Origin: a virus
Strand: one strand, 5' to 3'
Length of the DNA stretch: 64,000 nt
Virus record (IMG/VR): IMGVR_UViG_3300025151_000023
Location: 21,743-85,742 of that record
The translations under genes were made by a program, and so were the position numbers. Positions 19,438 to 63,821 of this stretch are shown here, one piece after another. The notes beneath the pieces are model-generated. The model saw only the letters and a program-made list of their open reading frames with translations, made no database searches and was not told the origin of the DNA. How positions within the stretch are numbered: the first letter of the stretch is position 1; each line of letters starts with the position of its first letter.

Positions 19438-19527
19438 TGGTACGGTCTACAGGACTTGAACCTGTATGCTTTGTGGCTATACCCGCTCTAGACGGCTATA
19501 CGTGTCTACCAATTCCACCAAGACCGC
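19438..19527 (-). tRNA. tRNA-Leu-like (TAG) with abnormally long anticodon arm
   Basis: GCGGTCT/AGACCGT acceptor, A73, encoded CCA, D-loop GG, T arm ACAGG-TTCAAGT-CCTGT, class II variable arm. Anticodon arm is TATAGCCG-TCTAGAG-CGGGTATA. Confidence 0.7.
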
Positions 19528-59177: not shown

Positions 59178-60044
59178 ATGACAAACCCACTACAAAATTA
59201 TTTTCGTAAGCCGGAAATTTATATCAAACTACCTTCACAAGGCAGATGGTATCCACCTGGCACAGTTACACTCAACGAAGCAGGTGAAGTTGGCGTAATG
59301 CCGATGACTGCACGTGATGAAATGATTGTGCGTACTCCTGATGCCCTGTTAAACGGACAAGCAACTGTTGAACTTATCAAATCCTGTGTGCCGGACATCA
59401 CAGAACCTTGGTCTATGCCCCAAATGGATATAGACACAGTTTTAGTAGGCATTAGAATTGCTACCTATGGCAATGCCATGGCGCTTACTACAATGCCTCC
59501 AGGGTCTAATGTTTCGCAAGAAATGAATTTGGATTTGAACCAATTGGTTGCAATGATTAAAATTGGTGACTACAATGATACATGTGTGTTATCAAATGGT
59601 TTGCAAATTAAAACCAAACCAGGCGATTATAGGGCATTTACTCAATCTGCATTGAAGACATATGAAGAACAACGCATGTTGAGAACTATCAACAGCAGTG
59701 ACATTTCCGAATCGGACAAAGTAAACAAATTTACTAAAATTTTTACTGATTTAAGCAACATGACTGTGGATGTTATGGCCAGAGGCATTATGCAAATTGT
59801 AACACCGGAAGGTGAAACAGTTACTGATGTTAAACACATTCATGATTTTGTGTACAACATGGATACAAAAATAGCAGATGAATTGAAAGCTCACATCAGT
59901 GCTAACGCAGAAATTGGCAAGATTCCGCCAATACAAGTTCAATCCACAGAAGAGCAAATCAAGGCAGGAGCACCTAGCACATACGAAACTGCTGTGTCGT
60001 TCGACAACAGCAATTTTTTCGCATACAGATCCTCTCGCTCTTAG
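59178..60044 (+). CDS. gp26: gp26-like baseplate hub / tail assembly protein
   Basis: YIKLPSQG, PMTARDE, TPDALLNG and DIDTVLVGIRIATYG motifs. Confidence 0.75.
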   Translation: MTNPLQNYFRKPEIYIKLPSQGRWYPPGTVTLNEAGEVGVMPMTARDEMIVRTPDALLNGQATVELIKSCVPDITEPWSMPQMDIDTVLVGIRIATYGNAMALTTMPPGSNVSQEMNLDLNQLVAMIKIGDYNDTCVLSNGLQIKTKPGDYRAFTQSALKTYEEQRMLRTINSSDISESDKVNKFTKIFTDLSNMTVDVMARGIMQIVTPEGETVTDVKHIHDFVYNMDTKIADELKAHISANAEIGKIPPIQVQSTEEQIKAGAPSTYETAVSFDNSNFFAYRSSRS

Positions 60045-60073: not shown

Positions 60074-60250
60074 ATGGAGAATGAAAACAAAAAACTAACA
60101 CACGATTTGTTGAAAATGTGTTGGTACATGCGTGGCTCTATCAGCATTGATCAAGCATATGCACTGGGTCCACAAGAACGCAAAATCATAGCCGACATTG
60201 TGAAAGACAACATGGAAACTGTGAAAAAAACTAAAATGCCACTATTATAA
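60074..60250 (+). CDS. gp51-like small ORF, probably translated as a -1 frameshift extension of gp26-like
   Basis: Manual translation MENENKKLTHDLLKMCWYMRGSISIDQAY...ER...; the -1 frame is open from 59978. Confidence 0.65.
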   Translation: MENENKKLTHDLLKMCWYMRGSISIDQAYALGPQERKIIADIVKDNMETVKKTKMPLL

Positions 60251-60258
60251 ATATTGTT

Positions 60259-60780
60259 ATGCGTTATAAAGAAGTGTTTGAACAAGATCCAGTAGGCACA
60301 GCAATAGCTCGTGCGGCAGGTCAATTGGCAAGCACAGTTGCTGACATTGATTTTACCAGTGACAGAACCACAGCAAAACAAGAACTGGCACAAGACTGGA
60401 ATCAACACTTTTCTGCACTGCTGAGAAAAGATCCTAGTGCAAGGGAACGATATGGTGTTGAATTTCAAAAATGGGCAAAGGAGTATGATCCTGCTGTGGC
60501 AACCAGAATATCGCCAACTCAAGTTGTAGCAGGTGGCAAGCCTGATCAAAAATATATGAACAAGGCATTGGATTTGATCTACAAATCTGCTAAACAGTAC
60601 CAAAAAAAGAAACAGAAATATGGAGCTGGCAACGTGGCCACTAAAAAAGATGATCCAGCAATGCCACGTGGCACCAAAGGAACAGGATCTGATGGTAAAG
60701 AATACACATGGCAAGGTCAACAATGGACTGACGCAAAAGGATCCATCAAACGCAAAAACATCGCAGTTTCTGTAACCTAG
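60259..60780 (+). CDS. Hypothetical late protein
   Basis: 173-aa ORF with TAAATA 5 nt upstream; C-terminal YTWQGQQW motif. Confidence 0.7.
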   Translation: MRYKEVFEQDPVGTAIARAAGQLASTVADIDFTSDRTTAKQELAQDWNQHFSALLRKDPSARERYGVEFQKWAKEYDPAVATRISPTQVVAGGKPDQKYMNKALDLIYKSAKQYQKKKQKYGAGNVATKKDDPAMPRGTKGTGSDGKEYTWQGQQWTDAKGSIKRKNIAVSVT

Positions 60781-60782
60781 AT

Positions 60783-61165
60783 CAGATTGGCTGACGCCAA
60801 TCGCTTTTCGCTTACGCTCAAGCCTTTTGTTTAACAAGCAGTTTTGCATCATGTAGATAGAGCAGTCATAATTCTGCTGTTACCAGCAGAACCATGGATA
60901 CATCATGTGAGTATCGCAGTCTTTAATCTCGCTACCGTAGTCGGGCGGTTGTGCTGTACCCGTTTGCTCATTCTAAACAACGCGACCTGCACACACCTAG
61001 ATTAAATTATTTGTGTGCAAGTTGAGGTTGCATCTTTTTCTTTGCAGTGCCTCATCATTGGAAATTGTTGCATCAAGGGATTCGCCTGTGTTGTTACACC
61101 GTAGTTCCCTGTTGAGTGAAGATGCTATATAGCCTGAAATGTTATGAAGTGCCTGAATGCCTAGC
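60783..61165 (-). ncRNA. Candidate large structured non-coding RNA (unassigned family)
   Basis: Only long intergenic gap in the window (~410 bp). Contains several hairpins whose GNRA loops and G-U pairs work only on the minus strand, plus an internal GACTGC-N7-ACATGATG direct repeat. Ends are approximate. Confidence 0.65.
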
Positions 61166-61191
61166 GTCAATATATACACATATAATCTGTT

Positions 61192-62127
61192 ATGGTCAAT
61201 CAAAATGAATTCAACGTGTGGAATCACTGGGATCCACTGAAAACTGTCATGCTGGCAACTCTGCCTAGTGCAGACTATTTTGCAAACATCAGGCTGTTCA
61301 GAAATCAACAACCATTGGTTGATATGTTGCAACAAACAGCAGATGATCTTGATAATCTACACAACACATTGGAAGAACATGGTGTGCATGTAAAAAGACA
61401 ACAACCTAACACAGACAAACGATTTGACCCTAGTTCTATTCCATACATTGACAAGCATTTGCAACCAAGGCCCAATCACAATTTTATGGTGTTGGGTAAT
61501 AATATGTGTAGCAACCATGATGGATATAGACTGATGGCACAATGGGACGAACACTTTCCTGACGCAGACAAATTGAGTACACAACCTTTGGCATGGTTTG
61601 AGCTGACAAAAATATTAGCAAGTATTCAACACAAAGTTAAATTTACCCAATGGATGATGTTGGGTAAACACTTGATTGCAAATTATACCACTAACGATAA
61701 ACAATACAAACACTGGATATTTGATCTAAGGCAATGGGTAAGCAAATGGATACCGAATGTGCGACTGCAACTGTTCAACATTGATAACATGTGGTTAACT
61801 ATTTGTAGACCTGGATACATTATTACTAATGTTAGTGATGACAAATTAAAAAAAGCATTTCCAGGATGGAAAATTTGGACTATGAAAGAACATGTGGACA
61901 TATTAATGATAGACAACAATACAGCATGTGTGACATCCAAATATGATAAAGAACTGTTTAAGTATCTGCATCAATTGGACATATTGCCCATACACACTCC
62001 TTTGCGACACACTGAAAGGTGGCACACAAACTTGCATTGGATGTACACAGAATTAGAACGTGTAGGCACCACTGTTGTTGATTACATTTATGGTCGCAAT
62101 GGTATTCCAAGGTTCACACTAGTATGA
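61192..62127 (+). CDS. Amidinotransferase-family (pentein) protein, degenerate active site
   Basis: WNHWDPLKTVM, GVHVKR, QPR..FMVLG motifs; C-terminal NLHW in place of GGxHC. Confidence 0.55.
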   Translation: MVNQNEFNVWNHWDPLKTVMLATLPSADYFANIRLFRNQQPLVDMLQQTADDLDNLHNTLEEHGVHVKRQQPNTDKRFDPSSIPYIDKHLQPRPNHNFMVLGNNMCSNHDGYRLMAQWDEHFPDADKLSTQPLAWFELTKILASIQHKVKFTQWMMLGKHLIANYTTNDKQYKHWIFDLRQWVSKWIPNVRLQLFNIDNMWLTICRPGYIITNVSDDKLKKAFPGWKIWTMKEHVDILMIDNNTACVTSKYDKELFKYLHQLDILPIHTPLRHTERWHTNLHWMYTELERVGTTVVDYIYGRNGIPRFTLV

Positions 62128-62876
62128 AGATATATTTTGATCACCTGTTTGGCAACACCACTGAATATGATGTGTTCAATAGCTTTGCTGTGGCAGAGGT
62201 TGATGTGGGCGAAGAAGATCAAGCACTTGCACAAGGATGGACGCCCATGGACGCCTATTTTTACACATTGAACAAGTTGCTATGGATCAATGTGCGAACC
62301 ACTAGATTGTGTTTACAAGATTGGACTTGGCGTAAAAAACACAGAAGGTTAAAACGCAATGGTGTAACACATAAGTTTATTCCAATCGGTGATCCCAATC
62401 CATACGACAGCGACTGTGATCGAGTGTACCATGCTTATTGCAAAGCTAAAGGATTCACAGACCACACCGGACACGTGATTGAAACTGATTTTAGTAACAA
62501 AGATTATTTTGTATACTTTGACGACAATCGTGTGATAGGGTATTCAGCAATCACTAGGTTTAAAGAAAGTGTCATTGCTGGAGAATTTGCATGGGACTAT
62601 GCCAATCCAAATCTACAAATAGGCAACTACAGTGTAAACATTGAAGCTGAACACTATCAAGGCATGGGCATCAAACATTACTACAATTCATATGCGTATC
62701 AATCAATTTGTCAGTACAAATGCAATTTCAACAACTTTGAATGGTGGACTGGCAGAGAATGGAGCACTGACAAAGATCTTTACAAAACACTACTAGCAAA
62801 AGATGATGAAGTTAAAACTTTTGCAGATCTACACAAGCACACAAAAGACTATTTCAAACTGTTGGGATATAATTAA
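62124..62876 (+). CDS. ATE/Bpt-like aminoacyl-tRNA--protein transferase
   Basis: ALAQGW, RTTRL, YHAYC..KGF, FAWDY..P.LQIG.YS...E, YYNSYAY...CQYK and FEWWTG motifs. Confidence 0.6.
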   Translation: MKIYFDHLFGNTTEYDVFNSFAVAEVDVGEEDQALAQGWTPMDAYFYTLNKLLWINVRTTRLCLQDWTWRKKHRRLKRNGVTHKFIPIGDPNPYDSDCDRVYHAYCKAKGFTDHTGHVIETDFSNKDYFVYFDDNRVIGYSAITRFKESVIAGEFAWDYANPNLQIGNYSVNIEAEHYQGMGIKHYYNSYAYQSICQYKCNFNNFEWWTGREWSTDKDLYKTLLAKDDEVKTFADLHKHTKDYFKLLGYN

Positions 62877-63376
62877 TCGTCAAAACGCCAATTTACTACA
62901 TCGTCTAAATTTTCTTTGGACCACTTGTTGTAGTATTTGCCTTGTTTTAAAATTTTTGAGAAACGGTTCAATCTTTCCAGCCTTTGAATTACTATCAACA
63001 CCAATTCACCATGATTCATTTGTACGCCGTCGATTGTTTCTATGTCCGCAGGATGGTCCTCCAATAACACCAAATCATGTCTTTTCATTTTGCGATTGAG
63101 TTCAGCTACTCTGGCATTCAAAATGCTGGGTGGAACAGCAGTAAATGATGACGCCACAATCACAGCTTCAAAACTATCATCCCATGCATTGCACTGTTTT
63201 TGGGCTGTGTTCCAAATTGCAACTTTTGATTCAACAATTTTGATTTTGTTTTGCATTCTAAATTGTCTTGCATAAGGACAGGGTGGTAGGTCACCAAAGG
63301 AAGGATGTGGTTTTTCTACGAATTTCTCCATCCAATTTACAATAGAATCGATTATTGGCTTTGAAGCTTCGTGCAT
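62873..63376 (-). CDS. Hypothetical protein (DUF1415-like PCPYA motif)
   Basis: WMEKFVE...PCPYA...DHP; start reassigned to ATG 63376 to avoid overlap with the GIY-YIG gene. Confidence 0.55.
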   Translation of the reverse strand: MHEASKPIIDSIVNWMEKFVEKPHPSFGDLPPCPYARQFRMQNKIKIVESKVAIWNTAQKQCNAWDDSFEAVIVASSFTAVPPSILNARVAELNRKMKRHDLVLLEDHPADIETIDGVQMNHGELVLIVIQRLERLNRFSKILKQGKYYNKWSKENLDDVVNWRFDD

Positions 63377-63398
63377 ACAGTATATACTAATATAAGAG

Positions 63399-63821
63399 AT
63401 GAAATTAGTCAATTGGACATATAAAAATAAAGTTGTGGATGAACTGCCTGAAGATTGTGTAGGCTTTGTGTATGAAATCACCAACACAGTGAATGGTCGC
63501 AAATATATTGGCAAAAAATTAGCCAAATTCAAACGATCGCGTAAACCTCTCAAAGGCAGAGTCAATAAACGCAGATACACAGTGGAAAGTGATTGGAAGG
63601 ATTATTTTGGCAGTAGTGATCAACTGTTGGCTGATGTAGAACAGCTAGGCAAAGACAAATTCAAACGTGAAATATTGTTCTATTGCAAATCCAAAGGAGA
63701 ATGCAATTACATCGAAGCCAGAGAACAATTTGCAAGAAAAGTGCTGGAATCAGATGACTATTACAATGGACACATTAGAGTGCGTGTGCATGGGTCAATA
63801 ATACAAAAGTCCAAAATTTAA
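63399..63821 (+). CDS. GIY-YIG family endonuclease
   Basis: GFVYEIT...KYIGKK, YFGSS, REIL, E and YYN motifs. Confidence 0.85.
   Translation: MKLVNWTYKNKVVDELPEDCVGFVYEITNTVNGRKYIGKKLAKFKRSRKPLKGRVNKRRYTVESDWKDYFGSSDQLLADVEQLGKDKFKREILFYCKSKGECNYIEAREQFARKVLESDDYYNGHIRVRVHGSIIQKSKI

Follow-up and report, generated by a model that had tools for sequence, protein, structure and literature searches.

A twin word that changes in concert within a structured RNA family of uncultured marine T4-like phages

The window analysed here is a 64,000-nt stretch of viral DNA, positions 21,743-85,742 of IMGVR_UViG_3300025151_000023, a record of 85.7 kb (~23% of the genome) that was assigned to a T4-like phage through a PF12322 baseplate gene at 59178-60044. 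A gap of 411 nt, flanked by two plus-strand open reading frames (ORFs), is occupied by a structured non-coding RNA that lies on the minus strand (Table 1). Between this RNA and a neighbouring ATE_C-like gene is a 311-aa ORF, and the locus also has a DUF6875-like gene and the baseplate gene. The RNA contains a bipartite direct repeat, GACUGC-N7-ACAUGAUG. Comparison with homologues shows a functional repeat within a new large phage RNA, in which two structural strands are combined with a word (ACAUGAUG in the window) that is present twice, evolves fast and changes in concert.

The repeat in the window and in homologues

Unit 1 is GACTGCGATACTCACATGATG (GACUGC-GAUACUC-ACAUGAUG, minus strand 60921-60901) and unit 2 is GACTGCTCTATCTACATGATG (GACUGC-UCUAUCU-ACAUGAUG, minus strand 60867-60847), with a start-to-start distance of 54 nt. 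An earlier sequence-only reading of this DNA had reported two copies at this spacing with a 13-bp GUAA hairpin between them; re-reading of the sequence agrees, placing the copies on the minus strand, and the hairpin is present as well (arms 60867-60879 and 60884-60896), with two G-U pairs that are possible on the minus strand only. Allowing up to 2 mismatches, GACTGC-N7-ACATGATG matches just these 2 sites within the 64-kb window. In shuffles of the whole window the pattern was matched 0.61 times on average, and 10 of 100 shuffles reached 2 or more, so that the repeat by itself, without conservation, is only mildly unusual and was therefore judged by its conservation.

Homologues were collected by pattern scans of viral, metagenome and genome collections and by a protein-guided scan, followed by nhmmer. 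The nhmmer search returned 172 match rows over 357 sequences, corresponding to 169 loci (viral, metagenome and metagenome-assembled genome (MAG); a duplicate of the window was excluded), of which 124 are full length (103 of these unique). The loci, referred to below by L numbers, include diverged clades: the L181-type, clade C (L226, L228, L229) and clade D (L282, L312, L315, L276). The sequence-only reading had staked the repeat on its presence in homologues, and a shared word of 6-10 nt is found twice, 47-59 nt apart, in 107/107 parsable full-length unique homologues. L276, the sole sequence without a second word, ends before copy 2. This conservation is decisive evidence that the repeat is not due to chance.

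The word itself differs among homologues, with at least 9 different words observed: ACAUGAUG, A(A)CGUGAUG, ACCACAG(G/A/U), GCCACAG, GCCACAU, AGCACAUA, AGUACA, ACAUCAAG, ACAUCAA, ACAUCAG, AGAUGAG and AGAUGAU. Word classes are 1-6 positions apart from each other. Nevertheless, the two copies of one RNA agree: their 7-mers are identical in 99/106 sequences, and the other 7 differ at one position, the last. The words fall into eight frame classes, and the frame [A/G][C/G]-NNN-A holds in 106/106 parsed RNAs. Close relatives were seen to change concertedly, e.g. L282 has AGAUGAG twice and L315 has AGAUGAU twice. The N7 cores of the two units, on the other hand, differ from each other in all sequences (e.g. 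GAACUC vs UCAUCU), which makes gene conversion unlikely. The sequence-only reading had seen fixed boxes around a variable N7; in homologues this is largely inverted, as ACAUGAUG is the part that varies and copy 2 has a conserved N7.

The region folds as an RNA of one strand. Compared with shuffles of the 411-nt gap, the fold has z = -5.16 on the minus strand and -0.88 on the plus strand, and the nhmmer match on the window spans 61134-60796. According to RNAalifold on 35 unique homologues, the consensus structure has 72 pairs, 37 of them with compensatory changes, and the many G-U pairs assign the RNA to the minus strand. It is an RNA family of uncultured marine T4-like phages that is new to Rfam 15: the window had no match at gathering score, and searches at E up to 10 with the window region, L122 (B-type) and L282 (D-type) returned noise only. 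No match was found among INPHARED isolate phages by blastn (window region and B-type RNA) or by tblastn (ATE-like protein). A full-text literature search returned nothing on this RNA; the motif may be listed in the supplements of PMC10690425, a paper on more than ten thousand candidate structured RNAs from viruses and phages.

The RNA was also seen on short (2-10 kb) MAG contigs (L231, L235, L236, L237) binned to unrelated phyla (Neomarinimicrobiota, Pacearchaeota, Pseudobdellovibrionaceae and Betaproteobacteria TMED41). These contigs are most likely mis-binned phage DNA, and therefore no host information was taken from them.

Structure of the RNA and its genomic neighborhood

The helices of the twin region are observed as covariation among homologues (Table 1). 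The GACUGC box of copy 1 pairs with an upstream strand, CGCGUUG (60984-60978), ~60 nt away, as part of the long-range helix P-core. ACUGU variants retain a G-U pair (241-320 is GC in 31 sequences and GU in 4), UCCGUUG opposite UGACUGGA gives two compensated pairs in the D clade, and CGCGUAG opposite CUGUGCG in L181 is compensated too. Among minimum free energy folds of the isolated core, P-core was found in 5 of 9 representatives. Immediately downstream, the N7 of copy 1 provides the 5' strand of hairpin Pa, in which 97.1% of cells are paired and 5 of the 6 pairs have changed on both sides. Its stems can be read in unaligned sequence: GAUAC/GUAUC here, GAGGC/GCUUC in L035, GAUACA/UGUAUC in the A2-type, and GAACUC/GGGUUC or GAACUC/GAGUUU in the B-type. 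Because this N7 is a strand of the Pa stem, the word of copy 1 is placed in a hairpin loop of 6-9 nt (CACAUGA here, AACGUGA in the A2-type, ACCACA in the B-type, GCCACAU or AGUACAC in others). The central hairpin Pc has an 8-bp core in all clades, mostly GNRA-capped (99.4% paired, 3 pairs changing on both sides), and its 5-bp extension is preserved in A-type relatives via G-U, G-C and A-U changes. Using a covariance model of the twin region (90 matches aligned, 66 distinct rows) fitted to the tested structure, we found 98.4% of Pa and Pc cells paired, as compared to 85.2% in shuffles (reached by 0/500) and at most 46.7% in slid controls, with 8 of 14 pairs changing on both sides.

Copy 2 is built differently. 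Its GACUGC box has no pairing partner that we could find and is not kept beyond the A and B types (ACUGA, ACUAU, ACUAC, ACUAA and ACCAA elsewhere). Its N7 is a conserved ..AUCU element (UCAUCU in the B-type, UCAUCA in the A2-type; AAUCU, GAUCU or UAUCU in L181 and the C and D clades). The sequence-only reading had named an N7 that only forms an ordinary internal helix as evidence against itself: the Pa covariation shows exactly this for copy 1, and no such helix was found for copy 2. A mini-hairpin of copy 2 with its word was considered and rejected, having no covariation support.

Table 1. Features of the RNA and its neighboring gene in the window (column numbers refer to the RNAalifold alignment).
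Feature	Positions	Strand	Basis or remark
Whole structured non-coding RNA, ~370-385 nt	60782..61165	-	Fold z, nhmmer, RNAalifold; ends inferred
Promoter-like element: TTGACC (61199-61194), 17-nt spacer, TATATA (61176-61171)	61171..61199	-	Read from the sequence
5' domain: GCAUC/GAUGC (61125-61121 with 61074-70) around AGGGA/UCCCU (61110-06 with 61080-76), plus small hairpin	61070..61125	-	RNAalifold; columns 93-97 with 149-153 and 111-115 with 143-147
Helix of third AUGAUGA (61058-61052): UGAGG (61054-50) with CCUCA (61027-23)	61023..61058	-	RNAalifold; columns 170-174 with 197-201
Variable long hairpin	60985..61022	-	Columns 202-216 with 225-239; compensatory changes in most pairs
CGCGUUGU, 5' strand of long-range helix P-core, closing the conserved core	60977..60984	-	Columns 240-247 with 314-321
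Nearly invariant core: CGGG/CCCG (60962-59 with 60945-42) and AC-UACG-GU tetraloop hairpin (60941-34)	60934..60976	-	RNAalifold
Copy 1 box GACUGC; with G60915, 3' strand of P-core	60916..60921	-	Columns 240-247 with 314-321
Copy 1 N7 GAUACUC; GAUAC is 5' strand of hairpin Pa, with GUAUC 60901-60897	60909..60915	-	Covariation
Copy 1 word ACAUGAUG, in Pa loop, last G in stem	60901..60908	-	Loop comparison
Central hairpin Pc, 13 bp, GUAA loop	60867..60896	-	Covariation
Copy 2 box GACUGC; G60867 closes Pc	60862..60867	-	Homologue comparison
Copy 2 N7 UCUAUCU, conserved ..AUCU element	60855..60861	-	Homologue comparison
Copy 2 word ACAUGAUG, same as copy 1	60847..60854	-	Word comparison; 6-bp pairing with preceding UUAUG possible
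3' hairpin GCUU-GA-GC-GUAA-GC-GAA-AAGC	60803..60823	-	Columns 480-484 with 499-503
Terminal hairpin GAUUGGC-GUCA-GCCAAUC, then CUGA (60785-60782)	60785..60802	-	Columns 506-510 with 516-520; AU/UA and GC/AU changes
ATE_C-like gene (Bpt/ATE-type aminoacyl-tRNA-protein transferase)	62124..62876	+	Pfam PF04377, 22.4 bits (cut-off 25)

Compensatory changes extend to the parts outside the twin region. The 5' domain is compensated at 112-146 (AU/GC/CG) and 113-145 (GC/UA/AU/CG), and reads ACGUC/GACGU in L181 and L035. At pair 172-199, in the helix that contains the third AUGAUGA, 17 sequences have AU, 14 have GC and 3 have UA, and at core pair 265-288, 30 sequences have CG and 4 have UA. The core hairpin changes on both sides at 289-297 and 290-296, with UACG, GAAA, GAGA or GAUA as its loop. 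The 3' hairpin has both-side changes in 5/5 pairs (GCUU/AAGC vs GAAAC/GUUUC) and an inner pair, 488-494, that is CG, UG or UA; tandem GA/GAA bases flank its 2-bp GNRA-capped stem, an arrangement that covaries, is shared by every clade and might serve as a receptor or a kink-like motif. Neither a hammerhead nor a K-turn fits AUGAUGAGG, since the flanking GAAA or GA elements are missing, and a likeness to cobalamin or FMN riboswitches (AGGGAA..GGYGAAUCC..CCGCCCGACUACGG), noticed by eye, was dropped as there was no Rfam match. The 5' end of the RNA also has repeated AGGCA boxes (CUAGGCAUUCAGGCA...CAGGCUA, window 61150-61165 and ~61131-61135, minus strand), which make a second direct repeat; B-type 5' ends have UAGGCAAAC twice.

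Upstream of the RNA, the TTGACC and TATATA blocks may act as its promoter. In alignments, a GATTGACC block and an A/T-rich -10-like block are likewise found upstream of B-type homologues, and a consensus promoter scan of the window did not list the element. At the other end, the terminal hairpin read on the plus strand scores as a terminator of a convergent 173-aa ORF. Just 3' of the RNA, two ORFs overlap on opposite strands (60151-60852, minus, 233 aa; 60259-60780, plus, 173 aa), neither with a Pfam or PHROG match; the 233-aa ORF, which reaches into the 3' part of the RNA, is probably spurious. A search for relatives of the 311-aa neighboring protein returned none.

The genes encoded next to the RNA over the 169 loci include ATE-like, DUF6875-like, baseplate and SegE-like genes. 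Orthologues of the ATE-like protein score 33.8 and 31.9 bits against PF04377, both over the cut-off of 25. The ATE-like gene is present at 121/131 informative loci that bear the RNA. The converse linkage is weaker: the RNA is found within 3 kb at 31/80 ATE-like loci (the initial nhmmer search left 50/80 unmatched within this distance, and one of the 50, L181, has a diverged copy). Whole-record blast of the five records with the closest ATE-like genes (fragments that are 14-29% complete) found the RNA absent in 5/5, and the gene-free gaps of L165, L170, L177, L161 and L163, which are ATE-like loci without the RNA, have no resemblance to it. B-type loci have the RNA and the ATE_C-like gene on one strand, with the 3' end of the RNA 35-50 nt ahead of the start of the gene; A-type loci have the two in divergent orientation, ~81 nt apart. 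Since no same-strand gene lies downstream of the A-type RNA, the RNA is not merely a leader.

Some further observations concern these neighbors. Together with a convergent DUF6875-like gene (phrog_28122), the ATE_C-like gene makes up a cassette (window 62124-63580; L122:7700-9002; L138:8148-9388), which is inverted and on the other side of the RNA between A-type and B-type loci, with the start of the ATE-like gene always facing the RNA. A SegE-like GIY-YIG homing endonuclease gene (PF19835, E = 3e-35) is found at L122:6794-7219 (minus) and in most B-type loci, ~76 nt upstream of the promoter region of the RNA and divergent from it. ATE-like loci that lack the RNA have a different gene-free gap of ~347 nt, located ~500 nt upstream of the ATE-like gene (2137-2483 in L165-L169, L174 and L175; 1618-1968 in L170), with several stable hairpins; it may be another non-coding element.

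Partners of the word and competing explanations

We searched for segments complementary to the word inside and outside the RNA. An alignment of 106 sequences has no run of columns that is antiparallel and complementary to the word across classes, and the reverse complement of the word 7-mer is found inside the RNA at 0/124 loci. Over 914 kb of flanks (not deduplicated), the reverse-complement 7-mer was found 81 times outside the RNA vs ~56 expected, with no recurrent position. The third AUGAUG box, the H1 strands, J1/2 (GUGAGCA in the B-type) and copy-copy kissing were considered as ways in which the word or the copy 2 N7 could pair internally, and each of them fails in at least one clade. Self-assembly of the RNA through its words is unlikely, as a 4-nt palindrome is found in only 3/9 word classes. 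As for tRNAs, the window encodes Leu-UAG, Thr-UGU and Ala-UGC and the L181-type record encodes Thr-UGU, and none was found in three other records (21-27% complete); the phage tRNAs do not match the word triplets, and the word pairs with a tRNA of the window over 5 bp at best. According to ARAGORN, the tRNA-Leu (UAG) is 90 nt long (19438-19527, minus), with its anticodon at position 38; tRNA-Thr and tRNA-Ala are ordinary.

On balance we favor, with little more than even confidence, the explanation that the two units belong to an independently transcribed structured RNA of ~370 nt whose twin words are recognition sites for two copies of an outside partner. In this RNA, the GACUGC of copy 1 pairs with CGCGUUG and closes the invariant core, and the N7 of copy 1 pairs with the 5 nt after the word to give Pa, whose loop holds the word, with the GNRA-capped hairpin next to it. 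Unit 2 has the same word downstream of the conserved ..AUCU-AC element, and inside the RNA no partner could be demonstrated for it. The word has the frame [A/G][C/G]-NNN-A-N, is lineage-specific and is the same in both copies of one RNA. Most likely, a sequence-specific partner that co-evolves with the phage lineage would be bound there, either as two copies or in a form with two-fold symmetry. Contact by nucleic-acid base pairing is more likely than contact by protein, because the word turns over quickly and the rest of the RNA is nearly invariant. Symmetric sites for a dimeric protein had already been proposed from the sequence alone. The twin units are conserved and homologous, and two sites for a dimeric or duplicated partner are still the best reading; the guide architecture of constant boxes and variable N7 proposed along with it did not survive the comparison.

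Several points weigh against the outside-partner explanation. The homologues are related by descent and their counts are not independent, so that the relevant number is the ~9-18 word states. The covariance-model alignment favors Pa and Pc by its construction, although the same pairs are visible unaligned. In the L259 class, where ACUGG faces unchanged CGCG, P-core is disrupted and no compensatory change restores it. No partner was identified, and no complementary segment is present at a fixed place in the analysed flanks; the outside partner, like transcription from the promoter, the RNA ends and the accessibility of the words, is a point that we infer. The word 8-mer is not enriched in the window, where it has 9 matches vs 5.1 +/- 2.1 expected, and 7/100 shuffles reach 9; the 7 extra sites are all on the minus strand, 6 of them inside minus-strand ORFs, which looks like composition and codon usage. 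Of 24 runs, one RNA run (X20) contained 25% of the sequence words, with two contigs over 61067-61238 and 61313-61549 that span the putative promoter and speak neither for nor against a discrete RNA; runs X22-X24 gave no coverage of the window. Finally, the 5 nt before copy 2 (UUAUG/UUGUG) can pair with the word in most clades, over 5-6 bp, leaving room for an internal role of the word.

This last point leads to the main rival, an internal toggle, in which both words compete for one segment (UUAUG/UUGUG 3' of Pc, in the A-type also the 5' flank CAUGG) and the RNA alternates between two folds. We regard it as unlikely, with a chance that deserves to be taken seriously: it would explain why the words are identical, as both would have to fit the same internal partner, the pairing can be drawn in most classes (AUUAUG/CAUGAU, AUUAUG/CGUGAU, UUGUG/CACAG, UUGUG/UACAG), preceding segments of the AUG and GUG types go with words of the CAU and CAC types, respectively, and UUAUG in the window also lengthens Pc via CAUGG. 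However, a helix in fixed register has 0 pairs that change on both sides, complementarity within a class is barely higher than across classes (mean 4.9 vs 4.2), and the register differs by one base between A-types and B-types. In addition, L334 has an A.C mismatch in both units, the D clade (AGAUGAG, preceding GUAUG) lacks the pairing, and the identity of the words covers positions outside it. A slightly smaller chance goes to twin binding sites at which a homodimeric protein, such as the ATE-like or DUF6875-like neighbor, would recognise the word in a loop. The tight linkage of both genes to the RNA would fit, as would a pair of similar sites at a distance of 47-59 nt, of which one is in a hairpin loop of 6-9 nt. 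The pair resembles CsrB/RsmZ-type sponge RNAs bound by CsrA, in which a short motif is repeated, at least once in a hairpin loop, with dimer-suited spacing; those RNAs have a fixed GGA, whereas here there are two sites only, inside a large conserved fold, and the motif is lineage-variable. At least 9 word states in near-identical RNAs would require repeated re-tuning of protein specificity, a Pfam/PHROGs scan of the neighbors found no known RNA-binding domain, and ATE-like genes occur without the RNA (49/80 loci within 3 kb, and all five whole records).

Two explanations have far less in their favor. Direct repeats with a roughly constant spacing of 47-59 bp could be operator half-sites for a DNA-binding protein, or repeats kept alike by gene conversion; we find such a DNA-level element very improbable in view of the selection on RNA structure and the strand-specific G-U pairs, and gene conversion would homogenise the N7 cores too, which differ. 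The least probable of all is a box C/D-like or guide-type RNA (tigRNA, bridge RNA) with constant boxes framing variable N7 guides, as the sequence-only reading had suggested from the RUGAUGA and CUGA motifs. Both AUGAUGA (61058-61052) and CUGA (60785-60782) are present in this one window, and the bipartite box/core layout does recall box C/D sRNAs, IS110 bridge RNAs and tigRNAs. Homologues do not bear the two motifs out as box C/D motifs: in most of them CACAGG, CACAU, UACAC, AUCAA and other words replace AUGAUG, the third AUGAUGA contributes one strand to a covarying Watson-Crick helix, and the CUGA after the last hairpin is missing in L058, L004 and L124. Matches to C/D-box covariance models do not rise above noise: SNORD102 (17.9 bits, gathering score 47, E = 8.6) and, on the opposite strand, sR14 (16.3 bits, gathering score 38) for the window, and only snR41 (17.4 bits, gathering score 50) for L282. 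Bridge RNAs are encoded beside an IS110-family DEDD recombinase, whereas the neighbors over the 169 loci are the ATE-like, DUF6875-like, baseplate and SegE-like genes. The programmable guide loops of an IS110 bridge RNA have no equivalent either, with the N7 of copy 1 paired internally and that of copy 2 conserved, nor does the RNA form an array like TIGR tigRNAs, as its units number just two and invariably lie within a single large conserved fold. The earlier observation that no Nop or recombinase gene is visible was extended to the 85.7-kb record, from which PF01798 (Nop), PF01248 (L7Ae) and PF01548 (IS110) are absent; the record being ~23% of the genome, this absence is weak evidence.

Relation to known RNAs and implications

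RNAs of several hundred nucleotides with an almost invariant core are usually machines (a ribozyme, a ligand sensor or a scaffold). ROOL (RF03087) and GOLLD (RF01998) are large, GNRA-rich RNAs found in phages and prophages. They are, like the RNA described here, stand-alone multi-helix phage RNAs of several hundred nucleotides with GNRA loops and a nearly invariant core, and their function is unknown, as it is here; the RNA in the window is shorter. Searches at E up to 10 with the window, L122 and L282 gave no match to RF03087, RF01998 or the Polynucleobacter-1 motif (RF01718), and we know of no counterpart of the twin co-evolving words in ROOL or GOLLD RNAs.

In T-box leaders, the Specifier loop presents a codon followed by a conserved purine, which is read by a tRNA anticodon. 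The word resembles this in having NNN followed by an invariant A (106/106 parsed RNAs), and the neighboring gene family uses aminoacyl-tRNA; the likeness is one of resemblance only. The RNA differs from a T-box leader in having two identical triplets rather than one, no NCCA-binding bulge was identified, the window, L122 and L282 have no Rfam match, and the A-type RNA is divergent from the ATE-like gene and divergent from or convergent with its neighbors. A further reading, which we hold improbable, is that the RNA is a scaffold that would dock two identical tRNAs and hand these (aminoacyl-)tRNAs to the neighboring ATE/Bpt-like transferase. The word would then be a codon-like triplet (CAC in most lineages; UAC, AUG, GUG or AUC in others) plus the invariant A, which could face U33 of the anticodon loop, with one triplet displayed in a hairpin loop of anticodon-loop size. 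If true, tRNA docking would mean RNA-templated, ribosome-free use of aminoacyl-tRNA by a phage.

For annotation, the lesson from this locus is that its AUGAUG and CUGA letters do not represent box C/D motifs. The RNA is widespread in marine T4-like phages, yet missing from Rfam 15 and from INPHARED isolates, and its constant neighbor, an aminoacyl-tRNA-dependent transferase, points to a possible link to tRNA biology. Words that change often yet together are a rare and sharply testable signature, predicting a partner whose sequence or specificity can be read from the word in each lineage; once found, this partner would show a new form of RNA recognition, either between phage and host or within the phage.

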